From a bacterium (lineage in GTDB: Bacteria > Elusimicrobiota > Elusimicrobia > Elusimicrobiales > UBA9959): 64,000 nt of DNA. The stretch's first letter is position 1; every line of letters starts with the position of its first letter. The notes below the pieces were generated by a model. The model made no database searches and was not told the DNA's origin. It saw nothing but the letters and a program-made list of their open reading frames with translations. The stretch is from contig JAJZOZ010000001.1 in the NCBI GenBank assembly GCA_021811405.1, forward strand, positions 5,103 to 69,102. The letters run 5' to 3'. The translations under genes and the position numbers were made by a program. This document shows, piece after piece, positions 12,677 through 40,289 of the stretch.

Positions 12677-12679
12677 GCC

Positions 12680-23437: not shown

Positions 23438-24490
23438 ATGCGCTGGAAAACGGCCGGCATCAGTCTGAAAACGCTGAAGTTTCCAGCCATGCTGCTGGCT
23501 ATAGCGTTCACGGCAGCCGCCGCGGCGTCCGTTGGCGGGCGTGTCTGGCCCCCGGCCCCGGATAAGGCGCGGATCCGGCTGATAGCCGTGCTTCCCGAAG
23601 CGGCGCAGGAGGACAATGCCGGGCCGCTTTTTCTGAAAATTTTACGCCGCCTGGCCGGCCTGAAGCCGGGCAAGCGCCGCGGTCCGGGGTTTGTGCGCCC
23701 CACAGGCGTGGCCGTGCGCGGCCGCGTCGTCTATGCCGCAGACCCGGGAGCCGGAGGCGTTGTCATCTATGACACCGAAAAACGTTCCTGCAGCCTGATT
23801 CCGGCCAACCGCCGCAACCGCCTGCCTTCTCCGGTAGGAGTGGCGGCGGCTTCCGACGGGAGCATATTCGTCAGCGATTCCCGGCTGCGGAAAGTTCTTC
23901 TGTTCGACGCCGGAGGCCGCGCCAGCGGCGAACTTAAACCCCCGCCGGGCGCTTTCATGCGGCCGGGTGGTCTGGCTCTGGACGAGGCCCGCGGCCGGCT
24001 GTGGGTGGCCGACGCTGCGGCGCATATGATCTACGCCTATTCTCTCGGCGGAGAATACCTGTTTTCCATCGGCGCGCGGGGCCAGGCGCCCGGCAGTTTC
24101 AATTATCCCACCTATCTCTGGGCCGATACGCGCACAGGAGCCCTGTGGGTCTGCGACTCCGGCAACTTCCGCGTCCAGTCCCTTGACGCCGCCGGGCGGC
24201 CGACAGGGGCTCTGGGGCGCAACGGCAACTGCCCCGGTTATCTGGCGCGGCCGCGCGGCGTGGCCGCAGATTCCGAAGGCCACGTCTATGTGGCGGACGG
24301 CGCGATGTCCGCCGTGCAGATATTTGACGAGAGCGGGCGGTTATTGCTGTATTTCGGAGAGCGGGGCGGCCAACCGGGCGAGTTCTATCTGCCGGGGGGG
24401 GTGTTCATTGACGGCGACGACAGGATATATGTCGCCGATACCTATAACGCCAGGGTGCAGGTATTCCAGTACCTGAAGGACGCGCCATGA
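23438..24490 (+). CDS. Exported NHL-repeat beta-propeller protein (paralog 3 of 4), cassette A
   Basis: Signal peptide. VWPPAPDKARIRLI. NHL units. C-terminal ARVQVFQYLKDAP. ATGA overlap with the next gene. Confidence 0.85.
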   Translation: MRWKTAGISLKTLKFPAMLLAIAFTAAAAASVGGRVWPPAPDKARIRLIAVLPEAAQEDNAGPLFLKILRRLAGLKPGKRRGPGFVRPTGVAVRGRVVYAADPGAGGVVIYDTEKRSCSLIPANRRNRLPSPVGVAAASDGSIFVSDSRLRKVLLFDAGGRASGELKPPPGAFMRPGGLALDEARGRLWVADAAAHMIYAYSLGGEYLFSIGARGQAPGSFNYPTYLWADTRTGALWVCDSGNFRVQSLDAAGRPTGALGRNGNCPGYLARPRGVAADSEGHVYVADGAMSAVQIFDESGRLLLYFGERGGQPGEFYLPGGVFIDGDDRIYVADTYNARVQVFQYLKDAP

Positions 24491-26367
24491 AGAAAATGTC
24501 CGCCGCTGCCGCCTCCGCCGCGCCGGCCGCCATTTCGCTGCTTCTGGCCGGCGCGCTGTTCCCGCCTCCGGCGCGCGCGCTTGTCGTCGCCGGTTCTAAA
24601 CACGATCTCTCTCCCGGTTCGGGCACGTCCCAGACCTGCATATTCTGCCACACGGCCCACCAGGCCAAGCGGAACGTCCCGCTGTGGAATCATTACGTGA
24701 CCACCCAGACCTTCACCTTCTACTCCTCCAACCATCTCAACACCTACCTCGCCATCGCCGCCCCGACCATGGCCGACCTCCCCGGAACTCGCACGGAGCT
24801 GTGCCTGTCCTGCCATGACGGGATGACGGCCCTCGGAGGCCTCTACAATCTGGGCGGGGAAACCATTTCAAAACCCCCGGCCGTTACGGGCCCCGCCAAC
24901 CTGGGCACTAACCTCGCCGACGACCACCCGGTGCTTTACGACGTCAAGCCCGGCGCGGGTCCGCCCGGCTCGCCCGGCACCGACCCCGAGATACAACTGC
25001 CGCTTGCCGGCGACGCGGTCAAGGTCTACGGCGCCGCCAACAGGGTGGAGTGCACTTCCTGCCATGACCCGCATGATAACCAGTTCGGCCATTTCCTGGT
25101 CAAATCCAACGCCAACGCGGCCATCTGCACGACATGTCACATAAAATCCGGCTTTTCCGCCTCCGCGCACGCGACTTCCGTCGTGGCCTATACTCCGCCA
25201 GGCGAAGCGGCGACCACCGTCGGCGAGTGGTCATGCCGGAACTGCCACCGTTCCCACGGGGCGTCCGCGACGCAGGCCTACATCCTGCGCGGAGCCGAGG
25301 AGGCCACCTGCTACCAGTGCCACGGCAATCCTCCCCTGGCCGGCGCCAGGAATATGCAGGCGCTCTTTCTCAAAGCCTCCAGACACCCGACGGAAACGGT
25401 CTCGGCCAGGCATAAGGACCCGGAGACGGACGGCTCCAATTTCACGTATTCGCCGCTCAACAACAGGCATGCGGAATGCCAGGACTGCCATAATCCGCAC
25501 CAGGCCAAGACCGGCACCCATACCGCGCCCGCCAATAACATCTCGAACGTACTGCTGGGCCAGTGGGGCGTGGAACCCTCTGACGGCGCGATCTGGACCG
25601 CGGCCATCGCCTATGTCCGCCAGGTCTTCGCTAACACGACAGGCTACAAGGAGTACCAACTCTGTCTCAAGTGCCACTCCTACTACGCCTTCGGCGCCAT
25701 ACCCGCTCCCAATATCACGGACCAGACCGTCGAGTTCAATATCAATAACAAGGCCGCTCATCCTGTCCGCGCGGGTCTCAGCGGCCAGACCGGGAGCGTT
25801 GCTCCGAAGGCTTTGACGGCCGGCCAGATGTCGGCGCCGTGGACGACCGCCGGCACCCAGACGATGTACTGCTCGGACTGCCACGATTCTGACGTCGCTG
25901 CCGATCCCAAGGGTCCGCATGGCTCGGCCGGAACGTGGCTCAAGAAAGGCCCCAACGTCTACTGGCCCAGGGACGCCGCTCTGGCGCTGTATACGCTGGG
26001 CGCCAACAACACTACCGACGCGCATCTGGCGGGACTTTTCTGCCGCAACTGCCATCCTTTGAGAAGCGCGACAGCAAATACCTGGTACAACAACGCCCAC
26101 CAGGAGCACAGTGGGGCGCAGGTAAGCAATGTCCCCTGCGTGGCCTGCCATGTGGTGGTCCCGCACGGCTCGCGCCGCGGGCGGCTCATCGGCTACGCGG
26201 CTGAAAGCGCCCCCTACAACAACAACGGCGCGGGAACCCTTGAAAAACTCGTGCTGAGCGGCTTTAAGAAAGCGACGACCCCCGTAGGATACGTCACGGG
26301 AAACTGTTACTCCACCGTCGCGGGATGCAGTTCGGTGCATACGAACGCGGGTGGCTATGATCCCTGA
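24487..26367 (+). CDS. 11-haem c-type cytochrome (626 aa), cassette A
   Basis: Signal peptide. 11 CXXCH motifs: CIFCH, CLSCH, CTSCH, CTTCH, CRNCH, CYQCH, CQDCH, CLKCH, CSDCH, CRNCH and CVACH. The first ~215 aa are homologous to the small tetrahaem proteins. Confidence 0.9.
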   Translation: MKKMSAAAASAAPAAISLLLAGALFPPPARALVVAGSKHDLSPGSGTSQTCIFCHTAHQAKRNVPLWNHYVTTQTFTFYSSNHLNTYLAIAAPTMADLPGTRTELCLSCHDGMTALGGLYNLGGETISKPPAVTGPANLGTNLADDHPVLYDVKPGAGPPGSPGTDPEIQLPLAGDAVKVYGAANRVECTSCHDPHDNQFGHFLVKSNANAAICTTCHIKSGFSASAHATSVVAYTPPGEAATTVGEWSCRNCHRSHGASATQAYILRGAEEATCYQCHGNPPLAGARNMQALFLKASRHPTETVSARHKDPETDGSNFTYSPLNNRHAECQDCHNPHQAKTGTHTAPANNISNVLLGQWGVEPSDGAIWTAAIAYVRQVFANTTGYKEYQLCLKCHSYYAFGAIPAPNITDQTVEFNINNKAAHPVRAGLSGQTGSVAPKALTAGQMSAPWTTAGTQTMYCSDCHDSDVAADPKGPHGSAGTWLKKGPNVYWPRDAALALYTLGANNTTDAHLAGLFCRNCHPLRSATANTWYNNAHQEHSGAQVSNVPCVACHVVVPHGSRRGRLIGYAAESAPYNNNGAGTLEKLVLSGFKKATTPVGYVTGNCYSTVAGCSSVHTNAGGYDP

Positions 26368-26434
26368 ATCCCGCCGTTGCGCCGGGAGAAGGTGATGCCG
26401 GCCGGAATGGTTCCCGGGTTGGGAGGGCGAACTC

Positions 26435-28108
26435 ATGCGCCGCCATACCAGCTGTCTGCTCTGCGTTTTCTGGCTGCTGAAGGCGGCCGTACCCGCAGCG
26501 CGAGCGCAATCCCCGTACGCAGCGTCCGGCCGGCTCGGCTGGTCCTATGACGACGTCATGGTCCGGACCCCGGAGGGAAGCAGGCGCATCGCGATAGCCG
26601 GCCAGAAGTACAATCTGAACCTCCGGGGACCGTTCGGCCTGCCGGGGATCGGCGAAGGCTTCGCCACGCTCGACTATTCTGAAGGGAGGAACCTCTCGCA
26701 GGTCGTCGCAGGCGGGGGCGCCGCCCAGAAGCTGGTCGGGTATTCTATCGGCGGCAGCTTCCTCCCGCCGGAGGCGCGCGAATTCGTGTCGCTTGGCGGG
26801 ACGTTCGCGCGGAATTCCGACCGCACGGCCTGGGGCGCGGGTCCGCCCAGGAATCTCACGGACACGAGCTATGACGGCAATATCGGCCTGACGCTGCCCG
26901 GGCTGCCGAGCCTGCAGCTGAGCTGTCAGAACCTTCAGCGCCGCGACAGCGCCGAAGGCGCGCCGGCCAGCCAGGATATCATAACGTGGCGGGAGCGCGC
27001 GTCGTACGCCAAGGGCCCTCTGCGCTGGAATTACTTCCGCACCCGGCAGGATACAAGAGCCCTCGGTCCGGGAGTCCGGAGTTCCGGCAACGACGACCTT
27101 TCCACCGACCTGTCCCTGGACTATCCCGCTCTGCGCGTGCGCGGCCTGCGAAGCCTGGCCCTGCGCGCCTCGTTTACCCGCCAGGCGTTCGACAGCGCCG
27201 GGAACCGGAGGACGCAGCAGTCTATCGGCGAGAGCGGCTATCTCACCACGGCGCTTTCGCGCAGCGGACGGTTCGAGTCATATCTCGGCTACGGCGAGAG
27301 CTTTTCCCGCATCGCCGGGGAAAAAAGCCTGCGCTCCAGCCATAACCTGAGCCTGGTCAGCCAGTCGGTTTCGTCGCGCTGGAATGTGAACAACCAGGCC
27401 AAGTACTCCGCGGCCTCCGGCCCCGGCGTAAGCGGCCAGAGTCTCGACGAGAATTTCAACGCGGAGTCGCCGAGGTTCGGCAAATACTTCGTCTACTATC
27501 TGCAGAGCGCCGGCAGCGTCCGCTGGGGGGGATCCGGCGGAGGGACGGCCGGAGAATCGGCGTTGCAAAAACTCTCCTTCTATCCCCGCCCGGAACTGGA
27601 TGTCTACTGCCAGCAGAGCTACTCGGGTTCGGGCGCCAGGCTTGGCCGGGCGCGCGAGGACAGCCTCGGCTGGGCCGCGGGCGTCAATTGGCGGCCCGGC
27701 AGCCTTCTGGAAACCGCCGCCGACTACAGTCGGCAACGCGGCCGCGGTCTTCTTACTGACCAGCTGACGTTAAGTTATAAAGCCTTTCCGCTGGACAGTA
27801 TGACCATAGGATGCGGTTATTCCCTGCAGCGTACCCGGACTTACCGGCCGCTGCCGATGGAATCCGTGTACGGCACATTCAAAGCCGACCTTGGATATCG
27901 CCCGGCCGAGGGCCTCTCGCTGGACGCCAGCCTCCTGCGGCAACGGTTTGCCGGGGAGAATCCGGGCCGGCCAGGCGCCATGGATTATTCCCTGTCGGCG
28001 CTATACCAGCTGGGCGCAGTCGAAATGAGCGTTAAATACGAAAACCGCGCGATTTCAACGGTCAACGAATACAGCCGTCTGGCAGCGGAGTTCAGCCGGA
28101 ATTTTTAG
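26435..28108 (+). CDS. Large outer-membrane beta-barrel protein (557 aa), cassette A; putative porin partner of the cytochromes
   Basis: RBS GGGAGGG. Signal peptide ending AARAQ. Ser/Gly/Tyr/Arg-rich alternating beta-strand pattern throughout. C-terminal AAEFSRNF (terminal Phe). Paralog of 38586-40289. Confidence 0.7.
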   Translation: MRRHTSCLLCVFWLLKAAVPAARAQSPYAASGRLGWSYDDVMVRTPEGSRRIAIAGQKYNLNLRGPFGLPGIGEGFATLDYSEGRNLSQVVAGGGAAQKLVGYSIGGSFLPPEAREFVSLGGTFARNSDRTAWGAGPPRNLTDTSYDGNIGLTLPGLPSLQLSCQNLQRRDSAEGAPASQDIITWRERASYAKGPLRWNYFRTRQDTRALGPGVRSSGNDDLSTDLSLDYPALRVRGLRSLALRASFTRQAFDSAGNRRTQQSIGESGYLTTALSRSGRFESYLGYGESFSRIAGEKSLRSSHNLSLVSQSVSSRWNVNNQAKYSAASGPGVSGQSLDENFNAESPRFGKYFVYYLQSAGSVRWGGSGGGTAGESALQKLSFYPRPELDVYCQQSYSGSGARLGRAREDSLGWAAGVNWRPGSLLETAADYSRQRGRGLLTDQLTLSYKAFPLDSMTIGCGYSLQRTRTYRPLPMESVYGTFKADLGYRPAEGLSLDASLLRQRFAGENPGRPGAMDYSLSALYQLGAVEMSVKYENRAISTVNEYSRLAAEFSRNF

Positions 28109-28563: not shown

Positions 28564-29841
28564 TCAGCGCTCCCCGCCCCGGTCCAGCCCGAACAAGGTC
28601 CTGACAGCGCTTATCTTCGCCAGCGTCTCCTCGTCCGTACCGTTCCCGCCGTTCTTGAGGCCGGTGATGGGAGCGTGCAGGATCCTGCCGAGGACCCGCC
28701 TGGTGACCACGTCCAGCAGCTCGCGGTCCCGCTCCCCGAAGCGGCCGGCGTGCTTCTCCACCTCGCTGCGGCGGATCTCCTCGAAGAGCTCCGTCAGCTC
28801 CCTGATCGTGGGACCGGCGGCGAGGGAGAGGTGCCAGCGGGTGAACGCGGCGAGCTCCTCCTCTACGATAGTCCTCACCTTGGCGGCTTCGCGCGTCCGC
28901 TTGTCCAGGTTCTGGTCCACGATGCGCTGGAGGGCGTCGATATCGTGAAGGAAAACGTTGCCGACCTCGTCCGCGAGCGGGTCGATATTGCGGGGGACCC
29001 CGATGTCGATAAGGAAGAGCGGGCCGCGGTCGCGCTCGCGTTCCCCCATGGCCCGGCGTACGTCCTCCGCCCTGAGAACGTAGTCCGGCGCGGAGACCGA
29101 GCTGATGACGATGTCGGCCCGGCGCAGGTGGGTGTGAAGGGCGTCGAAGTCCACCGCCGTGCCCCCCAGCTTCCCCGCGACCTCCTCCGCCTTGCCGCGC
29201 GTGCGGTTGGTTATCAGCAGGTCCCGGACGCCCCTGCCGGCGAGGTGCCTGCCGGTCAGTTCGCCCGTTTCCCCGGCCCCTATGAGAAGGACGCGTTTCT
29301 GGTCCAGGCGCTCGAAGATCTTAGCGGCCAGCTCGGCGGCGGCGAAGCTGACGGAGACGGCGCCCTCGCCTATCCCGGTCTCAGCGCGGCTGCGCTTCCC
29401 GACGTGGAACGCCGTCTGGAAGAGCCGGTTCAGGAGCAGCCCGCTGGTGGAAAGCTCCGCGGCGAGGGAGAAGGCGTCCTTCACCTGCCCCAGGATCTGC
29501 ACGTCGCCCAGGACCATGGAGTCCAGGCCGGAGGCCAGCTCGAAGAGATGCTTCGCCGCCTCGCCGGAGCGGAGGGCGTAGAAATGCCCCGGGCGGGCCG
29601 CCTGCCGCGCCCCCTTGAAGTCCACCAGGAAATCCCGCAGCCGCTCCGGCCGCGGCTCGCCGGACGGGGAGACGGCGTAGGCCTCGGTCCTGTTGCAGGT
29701 GGAGACCAGGACGCATTCGCTGAACGCGCCGCTGCGCAGCGCGGGCAGCGCCTCCCGGAGCTCCTCGCGCGAGAAGCAGAGCTTCTCGCGGACGTCTACG
29801 GGAGCGGTCCTGTGGTTGAGTCCGACGCAGAGAAGGTCCAT
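28564..29841 (-). CDS. hemA: Glutamyl-tRNA reductase
   Basis: MDLLCVGLNHRTAPVDVREK. The motifs STCNRTE and GAGETGEL (NADPH site). Length 425 aa. Confidence 0.9.
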   Translation of the reverse strand: MDLLCVGLNHRTAPVDVREKLCFSREELREALPALRSGAFSECVLVSTCNRTEAYAVSPSGEPRPERLRDFLVDFKGARQAARPGHFYALRSGEAAKHLFELASGLDSMVLGDVQILGQVKDAFSLAAELSTSGLLLNRLFQTAFHVGKRSRAETGIGEGAVSVSFAAAELAAKIFERLDQKRVLLIGAGETGELTGRHLAGRGVRDLLITNRTRGKAEEVAGKLGGTAVDFDALHTHLRRADIVISSVSAPDYVLRAEDVRRAMGERERDRGPLFLIDIGVPRNIDPLADEVGNVFLHDIDALQRIVDQNLDKRTREAAKVRTIVEEELAAFTRWHLSLAAGPTIRELTELFEEIRRSEVEKHAGRFGERDRELLDVVTRRVLGRILHAPITGLKNGGNGTDEETLAKISAVRTLFGLDRGGER

Positions 29842-29862: not shown

Positions 29863-30687
29863 TCAGCTGAAATTGTGGAAGCCGCGGAAAAAGAGATTTA
29901 TGACGGTCATGGAGAGCAGGGCCAGGGCGAACCCCAGGATGGACAGGACGGCGAACTTCTTGCCGTACCAGCCCGCCGCCTCCCTCAGCCCGAGGCCGGC
30001 GCCGTACACCAGCCAGATGAGCGCGGTGCCGATGAGCTTCGGGTCCACGTAGGAATGCCCCGGGAACGCCCTGGCCAGCCACGCCATGCCGACCGCTATC
30101 GCCACGGTCAGGAAGAAAAAGCCCGTCGCCGTCGAGATGAAGCTCAGCCTTTCGAGTACCTCCAGGCTGGGCAGGCGCTCGTAGACGACGCCGAGCCGGC
30201 TGGACTTTATCTCGTGATAGAGCATCAGGTAGAGGAAGCCGTAGACGGCCGCGATCGCGAGCGCCGCGTAGCCGAGCAGCGCGCCGGAAACGTGTATCCC
30301 GAGAAGCCGGCTCTTCAGGACTGGATCCACGTCGGTCCTGTTCACGATCAGCAGCGAGGAGGCGAGCTGGAAGAGCAGCGGGAGACCGAGGATGAAACAG
30401 CCGGTGCCCTTCACCTTGGTCCAGTACTCCAGCAGGAAGTACGCGAGCGAAATGCTGAAGGCGATGACCGAGAGTATCTCCGGAAGGCTGGTGATGGGCG
30501 GGTGTCCCAGAAAGACCGTCCGGGCGAGCAGATAAGTGAGATGGACGGAAAGCGCGGCGATAAGCAGCGGCGTCTTGGCGGTCTTCGCGACGGGGCTCGC
30601 GCTGAAGAACGCCCTGGCGTACGCCGCTACTGTTGCCAGGTAAAGGAGCGGCAGCAGAGCGTTCAACGCGGTTATTGCATGGTTCAT
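29863..30687 (-). CDS. Cytochrome c assembly (CcsA/HemX-like) integral membrane protein
   Basis: About 8 predicted TM segments immediately upstream of hemA, as in hemA-hemX arrangements. The start at ATG 30687 is supported by the promoter at 30731-30759, so the track start at 30759 is rejected. Confidence 0.6.
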   Translation of the reverse strand: MNHAITALNALLPLLYLATVAAYARAFFSASPVAKTAKTPLLIAALSVHLTYLLARTVFLGHPPITSLPEILSVIAFSISLAYFLLEYWTKVKGTGCFILGLPLLFQLASSLLIVNRTDVDPVLKSRLLGIHVSGALLGYAALAIAAVYGFLYLMLYHEIKSSRLGVVYERLPSLEVLERLSFISTATGFFFLTVAIAVGMAWLARAFPGHSYVDPKLIGTALIWLVYGAGLGLREAAGWYGKKFAVLSILGFALALLSMTVINLFFRGFHNFS

Positions 30688-30730
30688 TGCCGTGTGCCGT
30701 AACGAAAAAACATACTGACCGGCCGGTTCA

Positions 30731-30759
30731 AGTTTATGTAAATCGTGTGTCGAAGTCAA
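30731..30759 (-). promoter_or_regulatory. Sigma-70-type promoter for the ccsA-like/hemA operon
   Basis: On the minus strand, TTGACT (30759-30754), N17, TAAACT (30736-30731). Confidence 0.55.
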
Positions 30760-31137
30760 GGGATAGGCCTGCCCCTGGATACGGGACCGGATGGGGGCTG
30801 CGCCGCGCGGCAGGGCGCTGTATCGGGAAGGACGGGGGGTCTTGGTCCTGGCGTCTCTGCCGGGAAATTTCCGCCTCCCTGCTATGGTATTTTCTGGAGA
30901 GTGTTTACATATTATAACGGGAAAGCCTCTTTATTAATGATTTATCTATATTATATATCAATGAAGGGGGTTGCGGGAAGCCAATTGTCATAATTTGGTC
31001 AAAAAACGCAGGGGTGGGGGTTTTCCCCCATGGGCAGAGCCCCCGGTTTTCATCAAAGCGCGGCATTCAGCTGGAAATAGGCTTGATGGACTTCAGATCT
31101 GCCGTTTCCCTATGAGAAATGCCGTCTTTGGCGGCTA

Positions 31138-31153
31138 TGGCAGGAATGCTGCA
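31138..31153 (+). promoter_or_regulatory. Candidate sigma-54 (-24/-12) promoter for cassette B
   Basis: TGGCAGGAATGCTGCA has correct register. It lies 79 nt upstream of ATG 31233. It overlaps the inverted repeat CTGCAC-N8-GTGCAG (31149-31168). An AT-rich tract at about 30900-30990 lies upstream. Confidence 0.65.
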
Positions 31154-31232
31154 CCAGTATTTGTGCAGTACCAGGCGGGTGTCTGGATTTTACAGGAAGA
31201 AAACAGCGAAAACGAAAATTATGGAGGAGATA

Positions 31233-31892
31233 ATGAAAAAGGCGAAAATCGCGGGTCTGCTGATAGCGATCTGCGCGATAACCACCGGTGTACAGCCGCT
31301 TCATGCTGCCATTGCCGGTTCAAAGCACGACTTCCGCCAGACCGGCGGTGGTTTTCCGATAACCGGCGTCACCGAGATGTGCGTGACCTGCCATGTGCCG
31401 CACAGGCCTCTGGTCAATGTTCCCCTGTGGAATCACTCGATCAGCTCGTATACCTACACGCTCTACAACCAGAACGCCGAGTACGCTTCCGGCAACAGCG
31501 CGGCTTACGACGCTTCCCCCAGCGGCCTGCAGAACTCCAAGTCCAGGCTGTGCATGTCCTGCCATGACGGTTCCGTCGCCGTGGCCAGCTCGGTGAAGAT
31601 ACAGAGCGCTTCCAACAACTGGATCCTCTGGGACAACGGCGCGGCCGTGGCCAACGGCTCCGGCACCGGCAACACCGGCATGAAGGGCTCCCACCCCGTG
31701 GCCGTCAACTACGCCACCGTGCAGACCGCCAACCCCACTGATTACGTGGCGGCCGCCAGCCTCGTGGACGTGAAACTCGACGCCGGCAAAGTGCAGTGCA
31801 CCACCTGCCACAACCCGCACAACAAGTACAACAAGATGCTCGTGGCGGACAACGCCGGCAGCGCGCTGTGCCTTAAGTGCCACATAAAGTAA
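31233..31892 (+). CDS. Tetrahaem c-type cytochrome (219 aa), cassette B
   Basis: RBS GGAGGAG. Signal MKKAKIAGLLIAICAITTGVQPLHA. GSKHDF. Motifs CVTCHVPH, CMSCHDG, CTTCHNPH and CLKCHIK. NVPLWNH. GSHPVAVNY. Confidence 0.9.
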   Translation: MKKAKIAGLLIAICAITTGVQPLHAAIAGSKHDFRQTGGGFPITGVTEMCVTCHVPHRPLVNVPLWNHSISSYTYTLYNQNAEYASGNSAAYDASPSGLQNSKSRLCMSCHDGSVAVASSVKIQSASNNWILWDNGAAVANGSGTGNTGMKGSHPVAVNYATVQTANPTDYVAAASLVDVKLDAGKVQCTTCHNPHNKYNKMLVADNAGSALCLKCHIK

Positions 31893-32054: not shown

Positions 32055-33077
32055 ATGAAAAAACTGCTGCTCTGTCTTCTTCTTGTCCCGCTTGCCATCG
32101 GCCCGGCCGCGGCCGGGGAGAAGCCGGTCTGGCCGGCTCCGCCGGACAAGCCGCGTATAGAGTATCTGGAAACCCTGACGGCCGGCAAGAGGGCGGACGG
32201 AAAGCGCGGGAAATTCGGGAAAATGCTGGATTTCCTGCTGGGCGTGGTGTCGGGCGGCCGCTCCGAGCAGGAGTTCTTGCGGCCTACCGGCATATGGGTC
32301 ACCGAGAACGCGGTTTTCGTCGCGGATCCGGGCGTCGGCCGCGTCATGGTGCGCGACAAGGCTTCCGGGAAGTCCCGTTGGGTGCCGTCCGCCAGGCGGC
32401 ACAGGATGCCGTTCCCGGTGGGCGTGGCGGTAGCGCCGGACGGCAGGCTTTTCGTAAGCGATCCGGAGCTGGGAGGGGTTTCGGTCTTTGATCCGGAAGG
32501 AAAGCCCCTTCCCGGGCTGGCGGCGCCTCCGCAGGGGTTCCAGCGCCCTACCGGCCTGGCCCTGGACGCGAAGCTCTCGCGGCTCTACGTGTCCGACACC
32601 GGCACGCATTCCGTTTCCGCCTACGGCCTGGATGGCCGCTATCTTTTCACTTTCGGAGGCCGGGGCGGCGGCGCCGGGGAGCTGAACTACCCCACCTATC
32701 TCTGGGCCGACTCCGGCACCGGGAGGGTGCTGGTCTGTGATTCCGGGAATTTCCGGGTCAGGATATTCGACCCGGAGGGCAAGCCCGCCGGAGGTTTCGG
32801 GGAGATGGGCGACAGGCCCGGGTATCTGGCCAGGCCCAGAGGCATAGCCGCCGATTCTGACGGCGACGTCTATTCGGTCGACGGGGCGCTGGAGGCGGTG
32901 CAGATCTTCGACGAAAAGGGCCGGCTGCTGCTGTACTTCGGGGAGAGCGGCGGCGCGCCGGGTTATTTCTCGATGCCGGGAGGGATATTCGTGGACGGAC
33001 AGGACAGGATATACGTGGCGGATTCGTTCAACTCCCGGGTGCAGGTTTTCCAGTACCTCAAGGCGGACGCACGATGA
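32055..33077 (+). CDS. Exported NHL-repeat beta-propeller protein (paralog 4 of 4), cassette B
   Basis: Signal MKKLLLCLLLVPLAIGPAAA. VWPAPPDKPRIEYL. NHL units. C-terminal SRVQVFQYLKADAR. ATGA overlap with the next gene. Confidence 0.85.
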   Translation: MKKLLLCLLLVPLAIGPAAAGEKPVWPAPPDKPRIEYLETLTAGKRADGKRGKFGKMLDFLLGVVSGGRSEQEFLRPTGIWVTENAVFVADPGVGRVMVRDKASGKSRWVPSARRHRMPFPVGVAVAPDGRLFVSDPELGGVSVFDPEGKPLPGLAAPPQGFQRPTGLALDAKLSRLYVSDTGTHSVSAYGLDGRYLFTFGGRGGGAGELNYPTYLWADSGTGRVLVCDSGNFRVRIFDPEGKPAGGFGEMGDRPGYLARPRGIAADSDGDVYSVDGALEAVQIFDEKGRLLLYFGESGGAPGYFSMPGGIFVDGQDRIYVADSFNSRVQVFQYLKADAR

Positions 33078-34981
33078 GCGCGCTTTCCAGGACCATACTT
33101 TTCCCGGCGGCCTTGCTGGCCTTCGCCGCGGCCCCGTGCCGCGCAGCCTCCATAGTGAACTCCAAGCACGACATGTCCTCGCTGTCGGCCACCACCGGGC
33201 CCAAGTCGCTCTCCACCAGCGAGCGCTGCGTTTTCTGCCATACTCCGCACAGGGCCGGCGTGAACGTGCCGCTCTGGAACCAGTCGGTCACCACCCAGAC
33301 CTTCACTTTCTATTCCTCCAACTACGTCAACACCTACCTGGGCATGGCCGTCCCGACCATGGCGAAGCTGGCCGGCTCCCGCACCAAGCTCTGCCTCTCC
33401 TGCCACGACGGCATGACCGCGCCCGGCAGCGTGTTCAATCTGGGCGGGACCGGCGGCCGGCTGAACATGAGCGGTCCGCTGGGCTCCGCTTCCACCCTCG
33501 GCGTGAACCTGGCCGACGACCACCCGGTCCTTTACGGCGTAAACCCGGGCGCGGGTCCCCCGGTCCAGCCGGGGACCGACCCCGAGATACAGCTGCCGCC
33601 CGCCGGGGACAAGGTAAAGGTGTACGGCGCGGAGAACCTGGTGGAATGCACCTCCTGCCATAACCCGCACGATAACCAATACGGCCATTTCCTGGTCAAG
33701 TCCAACGCCAACGGCGCGCTCTGCACCACCTGCCATTACAAGACCGGCTTCTCCGCCAGCGCGCATAAGCTGTCGGCCGTCTCCTATACTCCGCCCGGGG
33801 AGAGCCCCACCACCGTGGGCGAGTGGGCCTGCCGCGACTGCCACCGTTCGCACGGGGCGTCCTCGGTGCAGGCTTACCTGCTGAGCGGCGCGGAAGAGGC
33901 CACTTGTTACGCCTGCCACGGCAATCCGCCGCTTACCGGGGCCAGGAACCTGAAACTTACCGTAGGCAAAGCCTACAAGCACCCGGTTGAGACCGTCTCC
34001 GGCAGGCACAAGGACCCGGAGACGGATGGCGCCAATTTTACGTATTCGCCGCTCAACAACAGGCATGCGGAATGCCAGGACTGCCATAATCCGCATCAGG
34101 CCAAGTCCGGCACGCATGTCGCCCCGACCAACGTCATTTCCAGCGTCCTGCTGGGCCAGTGGGGCGTGGAACCGGCCTACGGCACGGCCAGCTGGACGCA
34201 GCCCACCAGCTATTCCAGGAAGGTATTCGCCGACACGCTGAACTACAGGGAATACCAGCTCTGTCTCAAATGCCATTCCTCGTACGCGTTCGGGACTACG
34301 CCCCCGCCCGGAATAACGGACCAGTCGATAGAACTGAGCATAAATAACCGCGGCGCCCATCCGGTGATACGGGGGCTTAACAGCCAGACCGGCAGCACCA
34401 GCCCCAAGCCGCTGGCGGCCAACCAGCTTTCCAGCCCCTGGTCCGCCGCGCGCGGAACGCAGACCATGTACTGCTCGGACTGCCACGGCCCGGACAGCAC
34501 AACGGATCCCAAGGGTCCGCACGGTTCCGCCGGAGAACACATCTTGTCCGGGCCGAACGTCTACTGGCCCAGGAAACCCGGGGGGGCGCTCTACACTCTG
34601 GACGACTTCCCCGGGGGGAACAACTCCGGCGCCAACACCTCGGCTGGCCTGTTCTGCCTGAACTGCCACCCGATGTACTCCGGAACCAGTTTCTTCAACA
34701 ACGTCCACATGGAGCATAATCAGAAGAATCAGGGCGTTACTCATGCCTGCGTCGGCTGCCATCAGGTGATCCCGCACGGCTCAAAACGCTCCCGGCTTAT
34801 AGGCTATGCCTCCGACCAGGCGCCTTACAACTATAACGGGACGGGGGCGTTCGATAAGCTGGTCCTGTCCGGGTTCAAGAAGGCGACCAGCCCTACCGGT
34901 TATGTGAAAACGAACTGCTACGCTCCTGTTTCCGGTTGCAGCAGCGAGCACGGGATCAACTCGGGCGGATATGATCCATGA
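33074..34981 (+). CDS. 11-haem c-type cytochrome (635 aa), cassette B
   Basis: Motifs CVFCH, CLSCH, CTSCH, CTTCH, CRDCH, CYACH, CQDCH, CLKCH, CSDCH, CLNCH and CVGCH. Collinear with 24487-26367. Confidence 0.9.
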   Translation: MSALSRTILFPAALLAFAAAPCRAASIVNSKHDMSSLSATTGPKSLSTSERCVFCHTPHRAGVNVPLWNQSVTTQTFTFYSSNYVNTYLGMAVPTMAKLAGSRTKLCLSCHDGMTAPGSVFNLGGTGGRLNMSGPLGSASTLGVNLADDHPVLYGVNPGAGPPVQPGTDPEIQLPPAGDKVKVYGAENLVECTSCHNPHDNQYGHFLVKSNANGALCTTCHYKTGFSASAHKLSAVSYTPPGESPTTVGEWACRDCHRSHGASSVQAYLLSGAEEATCYACHGNPPLTGARNLKLTVGKAYKHPVETVSGRHKDPETDGANFTYSPLNNRHAECQDCHNPHQAKSGTHVAPTNVISSVLLGQWGVEPAYGTASWTQPTSYSRKVFADTLNYREYQLCLKCHSSYAFGTTPPPGITDQSIELSINNRGAHPVIRGLNSQTGSTSPKPLAANQLSSPWSAARGTQTMYCSDCHGPDSTTDPKGPHGSAGEHILSGPNVYWPRKPGGALYTLDDFPGGNNSGANTSAGLFCLNCHPMYSGTSFFNNVHMEHNQKNQGVTHACVGCHQVIPHGSKRSRLIGYASDQAPYNYNGTGAFDKLVLSGFKKATSPTGYVKTNCYAPVSGCSSEHGINSGGYDP

Positions 34982-36273
34982 GAAAGCTGCTGGTCTCGCC
35001 CCGCACGGCGCTGGCGCTGATGGGGGCGATAGCGGCGGCCTGCTGCGCGGCTTCCTTCGTGCCGCAGATAGCCGACAGCAGCCCGGCCGTTATCGGGGCT
35101 TGGAGGAGTGCCAGCCCGCTGACTTACCGGCTGGCCGGGGTCCTGCGGCTTGACAGGATATATACTTCTCCATGGTTCCTGCTGCTGGTAGCCGCGGCCG
35201 GCGTGGTGCTTGCCTATTCGGTCCGGCTGCAGTTCCGCGGCTGCCTTTCCGGCCTGGCCGGGAGCGGCGCGCCGGCGGTCCAGTTCCCGGGCCAGGGGCG
35301 CTTGTCCGCGGCGCTGTCAGCCAGAGGGTATTCCATGCTTCCGGCATCGGCAGGAGAGGCCCGTTTCGCGGCCAACAGGCCTGGTCGGTGGGGCTCGCCT
35401 GTCTTTCATCTCGGGCTGCTGCTGGTGATAGTCGCCGCCTTCCTGACGTTCGCGTTCCAGCAGAGAGGCTTCGTGCAGCTGATAGAGGGCGAGGTCTTCG
35501 ACGGCGCCGCCGCCGATTTCCTTACCGTGAACAATGGGCCGCTGGCCGGCCGCTTTTTGGTGCCGTTCAGCCTGCGCATGAACAAACTGGAGCAGGCATA
35601 CTGGGGGAACGGACAACCCAGGGATTTCGGCAGCCGGGTGGACTTCCTGGAGGAAAGCGGCAGGCCGGCGCCGGCTCTGATCTCGGTAAACAACCCCTTC
35701 CGCCGGCGCGGCGTGACGGTGTACCAGTCGCCCTATTACGGCTACAGCGTGTCGCTGGCGCTGAAAAGACCGGCCGGCGCGGAAACGCTGACGCATTTCC
35801 TGCTGGACAGGGCCGCCGTCCCTTCGAGGCCTGCGGTCGGTGGGGCGGATTTCCCCGGTACGGGCTATCTTTTCTGGCTCGAATTCCTGCCGGACGCGGC
35901 CGGACGGTCGTTCTTCGTGAAGGACCCGGTACTGAAGGCCCGCGTGACGGAAGGCGGCCGCGTGGTCTTCGACGGCCCCGTTCCGATGGACGGCACGGTG
36001 CGGGTCGGAGCGGATTCCCTGCGCGTGGCGGCCGTACGCGGCTGGAGCGGGCTCGTGTTCGTCCGCGACAGGTGGCAGGGGCTGGCGTACGCGGGACTGG
36101 GGCTTTGCGTCCTGGGGGCCGCGCTGATGTTCCTGCTGCCGTATCGCGAGCTGGCCGTGGCGCTTCCGGACGCCGGCGAAGCTGTGGTCCGGGCGGTTTC
36201 GGGCAGGGAGATGGACCTGCTGCGTGAAGAGGCGCGCGACATAGAGGCTGAACTTAAAAAATGGAAGGAATGA
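34978..36273 (+). CDS. ResB/CcsB-like cytochrome c biogenesis protein (System II)
   Basis: Membrane topology of an N-terminal TM pair, a large soluble loop and a C-terminal TM. It sits directly upstream of, and is coupled to, ccsA. The assignment rests mainly on context and architecture. Confidence 0.6.
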   Translation: MRKLLVSPRTALALMGAIAAACCAASFVPQIADSSPAVIGAWRSASPLTYRLAGVLRLDRIYTSPWFLLLVAAAGVVLAYSVRLQFRGCLSGLAGSGAPAVQFPGQGRLSAALSARGYSMLPASAGEARFAANRPGRWGSPVFHLGLLLVIVAAFLTFAFQQRGFVQLIEGEVFDGAAADFLTVNNGPLAGRFLVPFSLRMNKLEQAYWGNGQPRDFGSRVDFLEESGRPAPALISVNNPFRRRGVTVYQSPYYGYSVSLALKRPAGAETLTHFLLDRAAVPSRPAVGGADFPGTGYLFWLEFLPDAAGRSFFVKDPVLKARVTEGGRVVFDGPVPMDGTVRVGADSLRVAAVRGWSGLVFVRDRWQGLAYAGLGLCVLGAALMFLLPYRELAVALPDAGEAVVRAVSGREMDLLREEARDIEAELKKWKE

Positions 36274-37085
36274 CCCCTCTTAAGGCCGGGATACTGCTGC
36301 ACTGGGCCGCGGTGACGCTCTATATACTCTCTACGGTGGCCTACGCGGCCGCAGCGACTTTTTCCCGTGAGAGCCTGCTGAAGAAGGGCTGGTGGCTGGC
36401 GCTGGCCGGACTTCTGCCGCACAGCGCCGCCCTGGCGCTGCGCTGGTACGCCACCGGGCACGGCCCGTACATGGCGAAATACGAGGTGTTCTCTTCCAAC
36501 GCCTGGGTGGCCGTACTCATGTTCCTGGTATTCTCCAAAAAGATACCGCGCCTCAGGGCGGCCGGTTACGTGGTGCTGCCCGCTTCCTTCCTGATGATGA
36601 CGGCAGGCTTGTTCACAAGCCCGGAGCTGCGTTTTCTGCCGCCGTCGCTCAGGAGCTTCTGGCTGGTGCTGCATACGGTGTTCGCCAAACTGGCCGTCGG
36701 AGGCATACTCATCGCGGTGGGGGCCTCCATCCTGTACCTGGTCAGGGAAAGGAAGGGCGGCGCGGAGGCGGCCTCCCTCCCGGCGCTGGACGACTATGCC
36801 GGCCGTTTCGCCGGCTTCGGCTTCATTTTCTGGACCATCATGACGGCCGCCGGCGCCATCTGGGCCAATGAGACCTGGGGCCGCTACTGGGGCTGGGACC
36901 CCATAGAGACCTGGTCCCTCATCACCTGGCTGCTTTTCGGCTCCTACCTGCACGGCCGCCGCTCCCTGGGCTGGCGCGGCGGGAAGGCCGCCTGGGTATT
37001 GCTCGGCTGCTTTGTCCTGTCGCTGGCCACGGTGTTCGTCATCCCGTTCGTCTTCGACACGCTCCACGGGGAGTACTTCAGATGA
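36261..37085 (+). CDS. ccsA: Cytochrome c-type biogenesis protein CcsA/ResC (System II haem handling)
   Basis: WWD-type haem-handling motif WGRYWGWDPIETWSLITWL. Polytopic membrane protein with conserved His residues. Confidence 0.85.
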   Translation: MEGMTPLKAGILLHWAAVTLYILSTVAYAAAATFSRESLLKKGWWLALAGLLPHSAALALRWYATGHGPYMAKYEVFSSNAWVAVLMFLVFSKKIPRLRAAGYVVLPASFLMMTAGLFTSPELRFLPPSLRSFWLVLHTVFAKLAVGGILIAVGASILYLVRERKGGAEAASLPALDDYAGRFAGFGFIFWTIMTAAGAIWANETWGRYWGWDPIETWSLITWLLFGSYLHGRRSLGWRGGKAAWVLLGCFVLSLATVFVIPFVFDTLHGEYFR

Positions 37086-38593
37086 AGGCCAAGGTCCTGC
37101 TGATGACGCCGCCCTATCACTGCGGCGTGGTGGAAGCCGCCGGCACCTGGGTGCCGCTGGCGCTGGCGTCCGTGGCCGGCGGCCTCTCCCGCGCCGGCTA
37201 CGAGGTGGAGATCTACGACGCGATGGCCAAGTACTCGGACTGGGCCGCTATCGAGGAGAAGCTCAGGTCCTCGAACCCCGACTTCGTGGGGACCACGGCC
37301 TTCACGGCCACGGTCAACGACGCCGTCAGGGCGCTGGCGCTGGCCAAGCGCGTCAAGCCGGGCGTGGTAACGTTGCTGGGCGGCATCCATCCCAACTTCC
37401 AGTGGAAGGAGCTCCTCGAGGCGGAGGATTCGCCGGTGGATTACGTGGTCAGGGGGGAGGGCGAGGTGACGGCGCCCCGCCTGCTGGACGCCATAACCTG
37501 CGGGGAGCCGCCGGAGCGCGTGCGGGGGATAGCGCTGCGCGACGCTTCCGGCAGGGCCTTCGCCACGGCATCCAGGCCGCTGATAGAGGACCTCGACGCC
37601 CACCCGGCCGCGTGGGAGCTGCTCGACTGGAAGGACTACACTTTCTATCCCCGGCCCGGCTCCGTCTCGGGCCTGATCTCCTCGTCGCGCGGCTGCACCG
37701 AGGCCTGCTCCTTCTGCAGCCAGCAGAAGTTCTGGTCCCAGAGCTGGAGGGCGAAGTCCCCGGAGGCCTTCGTCGGCGAGATAGAGCTGCTGCGCAAGGA
37801 GTTCGGCGTCTCCATAGCGATGGTCGCCGACGAGACGCCCACCAAGGACCGCGCGCGCTGGCGCAGGATACTGGACCTGCTGATAGCCAGGAAGCTCGAC
37901 TTCGAGCTGATGCTGGAGACCCGCGTGGACGATATCCTGCGCGACCGCGACTGGCTGGACGACTACCGGCGGGCGGGCATAATGCACATTTACGTGGGGG
38001 TGGAATCCGGCTCGCAGGAGACGCTGGATACCTTCAAGAAGAACCTTAAGACGGAGCAGTCCAAAGAGGCCATAAAGCTGATAAACGAGGCCGGGATAAT
38101 CAGCGAAACGGCCTTCGTGCTGGGCATGCCGGGGGAGACGCCGGAGTCCATACGGCGCACCACGGACCTGGCCCTGGAGTACGGTCCCGACATGGCCTTC
38201 TTCATGGCCATAGCCCCGTGGCCGTATTCCGACATCTACAGGGAGCTCAAGCCCCTGGTGGAGACGGACGACTACTCGCTCTACAACCTGGTGCGCGCCG
38301 TGGTCAAGCCCAGGGCGATGACCCGCGCCGAGGTGGAGGCGGAGCTGGCCTCCGCCTTCAGGAAATTCTACATGCACCGGCTCAAGGGGCTGGAGAAAAT
38401 GCCGCCCTTCAAGCGGGAGTACATGCTTGCCGTGACCAGGCTGCTGGCCTCGCACTCCTACCTCAAGGAGCAGATGAAGGGGATGGGGGGCTCGGCCGGC
38501 ATGCCGGAGGAGGTGCTGCGCGTTCTCGGCGCGGCCGGCGTCGCGCTCACGGAGGCGGCGCGGCCGGGCTCCGCGGATAAAAAGCATGCGTGA
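37082..38593 (+). CDS. B12-binding-domain radical SAM enzyme (class B rSAM)
   Basis: N-terminal cobalamin-binding-like domain (VLLMTPP..DFVGTTAFT..LLGGIHPN). The CX3CX2C cluster motif is SSRGCTEACSFCSQQ. ATGA overlaps at both ends embed it in the operon. Confidence 0.8.
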   Translation: MKAKVLLMTPPYHCGVVEAAGTWVPLALASVAGGLSRAGYEVEIYDAMAKYSDWAAIEEKLRSSNPDFVGTTAFTATVNDAVRALALAKRVKPGVVTLLGGIHPNFQWKELLEAEDSPVDYVVRGEGEVTAPRLLDAITCGEPPERVRGIALRDASGRAFATASRPLIEDLDAHPAAWELLDWKDYTFYPRPGSVSGLISSSRGCTEACSFCSQQKFWSQSWRAKSPEAFVGEIELLRKEFGVSIAMVADETPTKDRARWRRILDLLIARKLDFELMLETRVDDILRDRDWLDDYRRAGIMHIYVGVESGSQETLDTFKKNLKTEQSKEAIKLINEAGIISETAFVLGMPGETPESIRRTTDLALEYGPDMAFFMAIAPWPYSDIYRELKPLVETDDYSLYNLVRAVVKPRAMTRAEVEAELASAFRKFYMHRLKGLEKMPPFKREYMLAVTRLLASHSYLKEQMKGMGGSAGMPEEVLRVLGAAGVALTEAARPGSADKKHA

Positions 38594-40289
38594 GCCGCGT
38601 CCCGGCAGGCCGTGGCGCGCCGGCGTCCTGGCGGCCTCCGCTTCATTGGCCGTCTGCGCCGCTTCCGCCAGCGGCGGGCAATACCATTATTCCGGCAAGC
38701 TGGACTGGAGGTTCGAGAGCGTCGCGGTAAGGACCCCGGCCGGAAAGACCACCACCTCCATGGGTTCCCATGTCTACAGCCTGAATCTGGACGGGCCTCT
38801 GGGAACGCCGCTCATCGGCAACGGAAACCTGGGGCTGACCCTGCAGGGGGGGAAGAGCCTCTCCAACGTGGTGGCCGCGCGCAAGTCCTCGCAGGAACTG
38901 ACCGGCTATAACTTCGGGGCCACGCTGCTCCCCCCTCCGCTTAGAAGGTTCATTAATCTCTCCCCCAACTTCAGCAGGAGCGTCAATAAGACGTCCTGGG
39001 GCGACGGCGCGCTGCATAACATAACCGACGCCGCTTCCGGGGTCACGGCCGGGCTGACGCTGCCGAAACTGCCGACCTATTCCGTCACCTATCAGAAACT
39101 GAGGCGCACCGACGACAGCAGCTACGCTTCCGACCAGGAGACGGACATCATGGACGAGCGCGCGCTTTATATGAAAGGCGTGCTGAGGGCGGAATACCAG
39201 CGCCGCCGGCAGACGACGCGCGATCTGCTGGGAAGGTCACCGGATAACGAGGTGGACAGCGTGAACTCCAGCGTCGACCTGAACGACGCGGATTTCAACA
39301 GGCTGGGCCTGCGCTCCTACTTCATGCGGGTCTCGTACGCCGGCCAGACCAATCGGTCCGTAGGCAGCACCAGTCAAAGAGGGGTTTCCTCGCTTTTCAA
39401 TCTCACCTCCAGGACGGTCCGTTCCGGGGGGGTGAAATCCTATCTCGGATACACGCAGGGCCTTAACCGCGATCTGGTCTCGAAGGCGCGCACGTCCAAT
39501 TCCGATGTAACCGCCTACAGCTCCTATTCCGGTTCCAGCGGCACCATAAACAACCAGCTGCAGTTCAGGAATATCGACGGACCCGCGGGAGCGGACCGTT
39601 CCGTCAGCGACAACCTGAACTCGGAGGTCACGCTGTTCAACGGCCTGGCCGGCCACAGGCTGCAGCTGGCAGAGACTCTCTCGTGGGGGGCGCAGGGCGC
39701 CCGCGGCACCGACCTGATAGAACAGCGCGTTTCGGTATATCCCGCCGCGAAATACGACTTCTACGTGGACCAGCGCTACTCTGCCGCACGTTCCGCGGCC
39801 GCCGGGGCGCTGAACCAGGGGCTTGGCTGGGGCGGCGGCGTCAACTGGAGGCCGGCCTATTACGCCCGCGGGGACATGAGCTATCAGGAAGACCTCGGTT
39901 CCGACCTCGCGAAGGGCAGCAAGACCAGGTCGGATACGGTCACCATGAAGTTCTCCGCCGAGCCCGCGGTCGGCCTCTCGGCCACTCTTATCTGCGCCTT
40001 TTATTCCAACAGCGCCGAGCTCGTCAGGTCCAGGAACGGCACTCTTTCGCTGGAAACCGCCTATTCCGTGACCCCGGCCCTGACGTTCTCCGGCAGCCTG
40101 TACCGGACGGACACGCGGCAGCGTTTCCGGCCGGACGGAGGGCGGGCCAGGACGGTCTCTTTGGATTACAGCGCCAGGATGGTCTACAACATCGGCCGTA
40201 CCACGCTTTCCCTGCTGTACGAATCCAGGGAAGCCTCAGTCTTCAACGCGTATTCGCGCTTCGGCGCTTTCCTTACGCGGACCATTTAA
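38586..40289 (+). CDS. Large outer-membrane beta-barrel protein (567 aa), cassette B; paralog of 26435-28108
   Basis: Signal peptide. The N-terminal region is alignable with the cassette A barrel (YSGKLDWRFESVAVRTPAG..YSLNLDGPLG versus ASGRLGWSYDDVMVRTPEG..YNLNLRGPFG). The same strand-like composition is seen throughout. Confidence 0.7.
   Translation: MREPRPGRPWRAGVLAASASLAVCAASASGGQYHYSGKLDWRFESVAVRTPAGKTTTSMGSHVYSLNLDGPLGTPLIGNGNLGLTLQGGKSLSNVVAARKSSQELTGYNFGATLLPPPLRRFINLSPNFSRSVNKTSWGDGALHNITDAASGVTAGLTLPKLPTYSVTYQKLRRTDDSSYASDQETDIMDERALYMKGVLRAEYQRRRQTTRDLLGRSPDNEVDSVNSSVDLNDADFNRLGLRSYFMRVSYAGQTNRSVGSTSQRGVSSLFNLTSRTVRSGGVKSYLGYTQGLNRDLVSKARTSNSDVTAYSSYSGSSGTINNQLQFRNIDGPAGADRSVSDNLNSEVTLFNGLAGHRLQLAETLSWGAQGARGTDLIEQRVSVYPAAKYDFYVDQRYSAARSAAAGALNQGLGWGGGVNWRPAYYARGDMSYQEDLGSDLAKGSKTRSDTVTMKFSAEPAVGLSATLICAFYSNSAELVRSRNGTLSLETAYSVTPALTFSGSLYRTDTRQRFRPDGGRARTVSLDYSARMVYNIGRTTLSLLYESREASVFNAYSRFGAFLTRTI

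Follow-up and report, generated by a model that had tools for sequence, protein, structure and literature searches.

A radical S-adenosylmethionine (rSAM) enzyme, encoded at positions 37082-38593 of a 64,000-nucleotide stretch of DNA from a bacterium of the Elusimicrobiota (contig JAJZOZ010000001.1; this whole stretch is called the window below), belongs to a family that travels with ResB and CcsA, the haem-handling pair of System II cytochrome c maturation. With these two, the family makes up a mobile module (ResB-CcsA-rSAM) of three genes, and a functional tie of the family to System II and to the maturation of multihaem cytochromes appears highly probable. The module is best read as a specialised System II set for the large multihaem cytochromes that extracellular-electron-transfer islands of bacteria and archaea encode. 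System II is thought to need only ResB/CcsA and thiol reductants, and we know of no definition of it that includes an rSAM enzyme. What is new here is a class B rSAM subfamily with a conserved ResB/CcsA association, which implies an unrecognised step of cytochrome c maturation. No published description of this link was found in the full-text literature, a coverage that leaves out subscription-only papers, so that a prior account is possible. An rSAM enzyme travelling with ResB/CcsA over about nine lineages would mean an extra step (haem modification, conditioning or hand-over) for multihaem cytochromes, and those concerned underlie metal reduction, electrode respiration and anaerobic methane oxidation.

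A class B radical SAM family distinct from BchE

The gene and the main parts of its product are the following, all on the forward strand:

37082-38593, +: class B radical SAM enzyme of 503 aa, predicted sister of BchE (open reading frame translation, Pfam, NCBIfam, AlphaFold2)
37121-37483, +: N-terminal Rossmann-type cobalamin-binding domain, aa 14-134 (PF02310; beta-alpha Rossmann pattern in the AlphaFold2 model)
37676-38170, +: radical SAM core, aa 199-363 (PF04055)
37694-37717, +: CX3CX2C motif CTEACSFC, aa 205-212, predicted [4Fe-4S] ligands (cysteines invariant in homologues and BchE)

The open reading frame (ORF) is uninterrupted, and its start codon is backed by homology, since the family consensus starts MxKKVLLITPPYHCG and the window protein starts MKAKVLLMTPPYHCG. 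PF02310 (B12-binding) matches aa 14-134 at 93.6 bits (E 1e-26; cut-off 32.1 bits) and PF04055 (Radical_SAM) matches aa 199-363 at 89.5 bits (E 4e-25), while C205, C209 and C212 are invariant across 59 homologues. The AlphaFold2 model, with 59 homologues in the alignment, has a mean pLDDT of 86.5. Its best Foldseek matches among PDB structures are AprD4, CysS, TsrM, TokK, MgmA and OxsB, all of them class B rSAM enzymes. The class B architecture proposed in an earlier note on this DNA, from a cobalamin-type domain and the motif CTEACSFC, is thus borne out by both Pfam domains and by the predicted fold. The solved class B enzymes (TsrM, TokK, CysS, OxsB, MgmA) and the B12-independent AprD4 share the same overall fold with the window protein (E 1e-19 to 1e-24, TM-score ~0.65), whereas their identity to it is 16-22% and their substrates and genomic contexts are unrelated. 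A sequence search of the PDB gave distant class B matches only, the best at E 2e-13, and to our knowledge no BchE structure exists for an active-site comparison. Neither a signal peptide nor a transmembrane segment is evident and the N-terminus opens straight on a Rossmann strand, so that the enzyme is read as cytoplasmic.

The best NCBIfam model is that of BchE, TIGR02026, which aligns over positions 2-453 of 497 at 384.6 bits, below its cut-off of 481.35. Members of the rSAM family score 385-429 bits on this model, against 816 bits for a true BchE used as positive control (Thiodictyon). All other models score far lower: HpnR gives 150.2 bits (cut-off 650), HpnJ 124.9 (577.6), and two methylases of ribosomally synthesised and post-translationally modified peptides (RiPPs) give 128.3 (ApyD, 750) and 117.3 (TIGR03975, 281.85); the methylases of methyl-coenzyme M reductase (MCR) are likewise below their cut-offs. 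Identity to true BchE is 35-37%, whereas three BchE sequences are 56-67% identical among themselves. Among the positions conserved in at least 95% of the family, 75 are the same in all three BchE sequences, including RGCxxxCxFCSQxxFW, and 38 are different in all three. In the neighbour-joining tree the family forms a single tight clade, set off from BchE by a long stem; such trees are rough, as are the ORF-based gene calls used throughout. Because score, identity, tree stem and family-specific positions all separate it from BchE, the family is distinct, and, judged from its sequence, the window enzyme is a member of an uncurated and uncharacterised sister family.

The likeness to BchE extends to the two-domain class B architecture and to the C-terminal helical region, the two proteins being alignable end to end, and the substrate of BchE is a metalloporphyrin with propionate side chains. 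The differences are a shorter C-terminus (503 aa as compared with 550-680 aa), the 38 family-specific substitutions, and the occurrence in non-phototrophs beside ResB/CcsA and cytochromes, not beside bchJ, puh or hemN. Plasmids of phototrophs yielded true bchE genes, which adjoin puhABCE, hemN and bchJ. The earlier note had expected an enzyme that methylates or rearranges unactivated carbons; the nearest characterised relative, BchE, is a cyclase and not a methylase.

The family is compact. A search over 1.84 billion cluster representatives yielded about 10 clusters (50% identity) scoring above 395 bits, beyond which scores fall to ~290-330 bits, the level of the true BchE-type proteins P0134 and P0136. 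Close homologues, 69-77% identical, lie in Elusimicrobia-like contigs, and those of Ca. Methanoperedens, ANME-2, Nitrospirota and other lineages are 53-60% identical, family identity staying at 52% or above from Elusimicrobia to Ca. Methanoperedens. Several of these homologues are misnamed Mg-protoporphyrin cyclase or RimO in their source annotations. A large set of proteins misannotated as "anaerobic Mg-protoporphyrin cyclase" or "RimO" gains in this way a function-linked context.

Linkage to ResB, CcsA, cytochromes and haem genes

The neighbourhood was analysed in 80 loci from species-representative genomes, in which the rSAM protein is 52-69% identical to that of the window. These loci were scanned with the window proteins and by de novo clustering, and 42 of them have at least 5 kb on both flanks (full-flank loci):

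CcsA within 5 kb of the rSAM gene: 49 of 80 loci; 29 of 42 full-flank loci
CcsA anywhere in the locus (within 10 kb): 54 of 80; 34 of 42
CcsA on the rSAM strand, where present: 53 of 54 in all loci; 34 of 34 in full-flank loci
ResB within 6 kb of the rSAM gene: 45 of 80; 25 of 42
CcsA, or an ORF with at least four CXXCH motifs, within 5 kb: 62 of 80; 38 of 42

A genome normally holds a handful of CcsA genes, and it is by this small number, not by a formal genome-wide control, that the CcsA linkage is judged to be far above random-gene expectation. The linkage to ResB/CcsA, to multihaem cytochromes or to both was found in Elusimicrobia, Nitrospirota/Thermodesulfovibrionales, Actinomycetota, Geobacterales/Desulfuromonadales, Desulfobulbales, Firmicutes (Thermincola), two Pseudomonadota metagenome-assembled genomes (MAGs), ANME-2 and Ca. 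Methanoperedens, about nine lineages with differing gene orders. Cultured carriers of the rSAM gene include Thermincola ferriacetica, Geomonas, Geotalea and Geobacter argillaceus. The earlier note had been prepared to give way to a clear orthology with a characterised rSAM enzyme in a neighbourhood not conserved elsewhere; BchE, the closest, stays below its cut-off (384.6 and 481 bits), the others are far lower, and the neighbourhood is conserved.

In bacteria and ANME-2 the gene order is cytochrome-ResB-CcsA-rSAM. Methanoperedens has the order cytochrome-rSAM-(thioredoxin, on the opposite strand)-ResB-CcsA-giant cytochrome, and since the two orders differ, the link appears to have outlived rearrangement and inter-domain transfer. 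It can be followed to more distant members of the family, one of which, at 44% identity, lies in the context CcsA, small ORF, rSAM and two giant cytochromes, while another, at 42%, follows an NHL gene. The rSAM-adjacent CcsA proteins cluster together across phyla and domains, apart from the second CcsA copies of the same genomes. The one from Thermincola, for example, is 41.7% identical to the window CcsA and 35.8% identical to its own paralogue. The partner cytochromes belong to different sequence families, of ~200 to more than 3000 aa, and ResB/CcsA is the constant element.

Loci of Ca. Methanoperedens and ANME-2 (L005/L081, L006, L011, L019, L040, L048) carry this bacterial-type System II set beside giant multihaem cytochromes, the thioredoxin being part of the archaeal set in the Methanoperedens loci. 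A bacterial-type System II cassette is thereby revealed in both groups. For ANME, one comparative-genomics study describes Ccm (System I) only (PMC9012536).

Two loci bring the module next to haem biosynthesis. The first part of the Thermincola ferriacetica Z-0001 locus (L094; PMC4582578) reads giant cytochrome, ResB, CcsA, rSAM fused to a LuxE-like adenylating domain, NHL and cytochrome, and it continues with a second ResB, CcsA, a sirohaem synthase-like gene, hemA, hemC and hemD/cobA. The C-terminus of this fusion protein (P0127, L094 ~12700-12928) consists of four to five tandem copies of HSHPCSTVADEMLRA. Contig L096 carries two tandem ResB-CcsA-rSAM trios. The first has the order cytochrome-ResB-CcsA-rSAM, its rSAM protein being 50% identical to that of the window and scoring 403 bits on the BchE model. 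The second, after a GGDEF/EAL gene, consists of ResB-CcsA and a diverged rSAM paralogue, P0138 (L096:8001-9437), which is directly followed by sirohaem synthase, hemA, hemC, cobA/hemD, NirJ1, hemB, NirJ2 and a gene of the NirD/L-like (AsnC-type) regulator family; NirJ1 and NirJ2 score above their NCBIfam cut-offs. The NirD/L-like family includes sirohaem decarboxylase. It is haem, and not one particular protein, to which the Thermincola locus, the L096 trios and the clustering of the CcsA proteins tie the module.

In the window, the module lies in a gene cassette (cassette B) with a pair of haem-related genes just upstream:

28564-29841, -: hemA (glutamyl-tRNA reductase), divergent, just 5' of cassette B
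29863-30759, -: HemX-like PF01578 protein, divergent, just 5' of cassette B
31119-31892, +: tetrahaem cytochrome, 257 aa, first gene of cassette B
32055-33077, +: NHL-repeat beta-propeller protein
33074-34981, +: multihaem cytochrome, 635 aa, 11 CXXCH; orthologues 5' of ResB in Elusimicrobia and Nitrospirota loci
34978-36273, +: ResB/CcsB-like partner of CcsA (PF05140, 119.7 bits)
36261-37085, +: CcsA, System II haem-handling synthase subunit (PF01578, TIGR03144, WWD domain and conserved His)
38586-40289, +: secreted beta-rich protein, 567 aa, putative outer-membrane barrel, paralogue of 26435-28108

The window CcsA scores 165.7 bits on TIGR03144, slightly below the cut-off of 187.6. It retains the WWD domain (WGRYWGWDPIETW), GHGPY, YLHGR and the transmembrane His, and with the PF05140 ResB upstream it qualifies as a System II protein. 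The HemX-like protein is without the WWD motif and without most of the conserved His. Together with hemA it echoes, near cassette B, the haem-biosynthesis genes of the Thermincola and L096 loci. The 635-aa, 11-haem cytochrome is the likely client of the System II maturation module.

From the NHL gene through the 635-aa cytochrome, ResB, CcsA and rSAM genes to the 567-aa ORF, each gene overlaps the next by 4-13 nt, so that these six look like one translationally coupled unit. The sequence ATGA at 37082-37085 holds both the rSAM start and the CcsA stop, with a Shine-Dalgarno-like hexamer (GGGGAG) 8 nt 5' of the start, and ATGCGTGA at 38586-38593 is the overlap of the rSAM end with the next ORF. 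The overlaps of 4 nt with ccsA and 8 nt with the barrel gene noted earlier, and with them the membership of the operon, are confirmed by these junctions. Cassette A (22652-28108) comprises a cytochrome (22652-23365), an NHL protein (23438-24490), a 626-aa cytochrome (24487-26367) and a 557-aa putative barrel (26435-28108). The order cytochrome-NHL-cytochrome-"barrel" is thus common to both cassettes, their last genes being 33% identical. ResB, CcsA and the rSAM gene are all three missing from cassette A and lie together between cytochrome and barrel in cassette B, which is why they appear to be a block inserted at that point.

Haem as candidate substrate, and the alternatives

Taken in full, the reading that we favour is that this class B rSAM enzyme works in the cytoplasm, before a dedicated System II comes into play, and that it acts either on haem or on the passing on of haem; our confidence in the whole of it falls slightly short of even. 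The data establish the fold, the motifs, the separation from BchE and the conserved linkage to ResB/CcsA, cytochromes and haem genes. From the genomic context and the relation to BchE, we infer that haem is the substrate, what kind of chemistry takes place, and that the product is handed over. The [4Fe-4S] cluster would cleave SAM to give a 5'-deoxyadenosyl radical, which would take a hydrogen from a side chain of a tetrapyrrole, most probably haem b, at an unactivated carbon. The cobalamin domain could then join in the follow-up, which may be methyl transfer or, in line with proposals for BchE, the oxidation or cyclisation of a propionate. ResB/CcsA, translated together with the enzyme, would receive the product at the cytoplasmic face, export it and join it to the CXXCH motifs of the neighbouring cytochromes. 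The haem pathways of the host lineages differ (protoporphyrin-, coproporphyrin- or sirohaem-dependent) and converge only at haem b, so that a tetrapyrrole substrate common to all of them would be haem b, or else a precursor from the early part that the pathways share. Other radical SAM enzymes of the cytoplasm bind haem-type tetrapyrroles or act on them by radical chemistry (HemN, AhbC/AhbD/NirJ, ChuW/HutW, HemW); they differ from the window enzyme in fold and class, with SPASM or HemN-type C-termini and no cobalamin domain, and sequence similarity to them is marginal. Natural fusions of the rSAM protein, with a LuxE-like adenylating enzyme or with an SRPBCC (Polyketide_cyc2) ligand-binding domain, suggest a small carboxylate-bearing or hydrophobic substrate, a description that haem propionates fit, and fatty acids too.

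A more specific form of this reading can be put forward only tentatively. The enzyme would convert haem b into an unknown derivative (side-chain methylated, oxidised, or with a BchE-like isocyclic ring), which the co-evolved ResB/CcsA would specifically export and attach to extracellular-electron-transfer cytochromes, with propionate activation by the LuxE-like partner in some lineages. If true, it would amount to a new haem cofactor common to metal-reducing bacteria and methane-oxidising archaea. The cultured carriers permit direct testing of the haem hypothesis.

The dedicated lyases of Wolinella succinogenes, NrfI, CcsA1 and CcsA2, are System II enzymes that recognise atypical motifs (CX2CK, CX15CH). 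They resemble the present module in that a CcsA/ResB-type set is encoded beside, and presumably dedicated to, particular multihaem cytochromes. The difference is that the Wolinella lyases go with atypical motifs and no known rSAM partner, whereas in the window the rSAM enzyme is a conserved extra component and the cytochromes have canonical CXXCH alone.

The earlier note had listed haem and a cytochrome, barrel or NHL polypeptide as possible substrates. Haem is favoured over the cytochrome polypeptide, short of proof, and the other two are unlikely, since the NHL protein is present in only ~15 of the 80 loci and the barrel homologue is restricted to the closest (Elusimicrobia-type) relatives and to one merged gene call. 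The latter, P0123 (1075 aa), was considered as an rSAM-barrel fusion and rejected: its C-terminal part, homologous to the 567-aa ORF, has its own signal peptide, so that it was taken for a gene call running across an overlapping stop and start.

Several points weigh against action on haem ahead of System II. The 80 loci are phylogenetically related and not independent, and many come from MAGs with uncertain taxonomy labels. CcsA is absent within 10 kb in 8 of the 42 full-flank loci, and three loci (L022, L029 and the SRPBCC-fusion locus L092) have no cytochrome context at all. Elsewhere (L021, L046, L071/72) the rSAM gene lies directly beside cytochromes without ResB/CcsA, which fits a protein substrate equally well. 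Geobacter cytochrome filaments have ordinary haem c in the cryo-EM structures that we know of, and LuxE and SRPBCC domains are classically lipid-related. Finally, the use of B12 is not assured, because the best structural match of the model, AprD4, has a B12-like domain without cobalamin binding.

Among the alternatives, modification of a protein is rather unlikely: an apocytochrome or another exported client would be altered before Sec export, for instance by C-methylation or cross-linking near CXXCH. Class B rSAM enzymes that modify proteins are known for MCR (MgmA, Mmp10) and for RiPPs. The loci just mentioned, with the rSAM gene directly beside multihaem cytochrome genes and no ResB/CcsA nearby, would suit such a role, as would the presence of MgmA, a protein glutamine methylase, among the structural matches and the weak RiPP methylase matches (ApyD 128 bits, TIGR03975 117 bits). 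The RiPP and MCR models are, however, far under the BchE model score and under their own cut-offs, and no precursor peptide, RiPP recognition element (RRE) or peptide-binding domain was seen; a conserved small precursor-like ORF beside the rSAM gene was not found in the loci by a peptide search that was not exhaustive. The neighbouring cytochromes differ in family and size and share no atypical motif or extra Cys/His pattern, and in 105 neighbouring cytochrome ORFs no unifying atypical haem motif was found (CX3CH, CX4CH, CX2CK, lone CH, extra Cys). CX4CH is common in the Geobacterales neighbour cytochromes and absent from the window, Elusimicrobia and Nitrospirota loci, and is for this reason not a unifying feature. 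The LuxE-like and SRPBCC fusions and the adjacency to a haem operon would also be unexpected for a protein modifier. As a separate observation, giant rSAM-adjacent cytochromes of L046, L062, L073 and other Geobacterales mix CX4CH and CXXCH, with for example 17 and 41 in one ORF.

We regard as unlikely a hydrophobic substrate other than a tetrapyrrole (lipid, hopanoid or quinone), the enzyme remodelling the membrane or cofactor pool for extracellular electron transfer and the ResB/CcsA link reflecting co-regulation only. It is suggested by the fusions to a LuxE-like long-chain-acid ligase domain and to an SRPBCC/Polyketide_cyc2 lipid-type domain, and by the second tier of NCBIfam matches, which consists of the hopanoid enzymes HpnR and HpnJ and a ladderane-lipid rSAM. 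The Geobacterales clusters include a PMT-like glycosyltransferase and further B12-rSAM enzymes, and at the SRPBCC-fusion locus a gene of menaquinone synthesis (futalosine pathway) is close by and cytochromes are missing. Yet the full-length similarity to BchE (385 bits) is much greater than that to HpnR (150) or HpnJ (125), the window is without lipid-type accessory genes, and co-regulation ill explains the close linkage to CcsA, on one strand and often with overlap, that recurs in many lineages, or the duplicated trio abutting a haem operon.

Haem supply or chaperoning with no new product seems improbable. The protein would be a step of anaerobic haem biosynthesis or homeostasis, or a HemW-like loader of haem b onto ResB/CcsA, its radical chemistry being vestigial or regulatory. 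Most cytochrome-rich organisms mature their cytochromes without an rSAM enzyme, the three haem pathways among the hosts make one shared biosynthetic step unlikely, and in the family proper CX3CX2C and many core residues are invariant across domains, as expected of an active enzyme. Such a role would nevertheless agree with the adjacency of haem biosynthesis genes in three settings (window hemA, Thermincola L094 and L096), with a weak HemW/HemN-related match (TIGR00539, E 1.4e-6) and with two degenerate paralogues. One of these, P0135, has lost all three cluster Cys; the other, P0138, has lost several core motifs and sits between ResB-CcsA and the sirohaem-dependent haem operon. Both may be non-catalytic haem-handling derivatives, and it is for these offshoots that the idea is kept alive.

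That the enzyme is a true BchE, which in bacteriochlorophyll synthesis is the anaerobic cyclase for Mg-protoporphyrin IX monomethyl ester, is effectively refuted: several homologues are so named by JGI and BchE is the best NCBIfam match, but the score, identity, 38 differing positions, clade and context all speak against it, the window having no bch, puf or puh genes and the carriers being non-phototrophs (Methanoperedens, Geobacterales, Thermincola).

Other genes of the window and of the related loci

The 567-aa ORF that follows the rSAM gene has no Pfam or NCBIfam match. Its AlphaFold2 model, from two sequences only, has a pLDDT of 40 and consists nearly entirely of long beta-strands. The label "beta-barrel" given to it earlier is therefore plausible for its strand content and not demonstrated, given this pLDDT and the lack of a family match.

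The remaining window holds further cytochromes and NHL proteins (18215-28108 stretch), sigma-54-type regulators, guaA, guaB, dnaB and alr. At 14139-16417, the gene of a 437-aa cytochrome (doubled-CXXCH type) overlaps by 4 nt with the one after it, which encodes an AhpC/TSA-thioredoxin and TPR protein that could be a ResA/CcsX-like thiol reductant of System II. The stretch directly 5' of the cytochrome island (10012-14059) encodes a protein with a sigma-54 DNA-binding domain, together with a HAMP histidine kinase and an activator of the NtrC sigma-54 type. A search across the window for four accessory genes seen at other loci, namely the CopD-like 116-aa protein described below, the LuxE-like enzyme, a SPASM rSAM and the archaeal thioredoxin, found none of them; its "f8" matches were discarded as alternative-frame artefacts overlapping CcsA and the rSAM gene.

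In 35 of the 80 loci (for example at L041:11534-11884) the rSAM gene is adjoined by that of a 116-aa three-helix membrane protein with two invariant His (GFxHD...KH) and a weak match to the CopD Pfam family, which could be a haem- or metal-binding partner. A second type of cluster was observed in Geobacterales and some Nitrospirota (L041, L044, L062, L067, L078, L079). It encodes a CcsA-like protein without a ResB partner, in which the WWD domain is kept and the first periplasmic His is missing, and its neighbours are a 445-aa B12-rSAM, a LuxE-like enzyme, the CopD-like protein and the BchE-sister rSAM.

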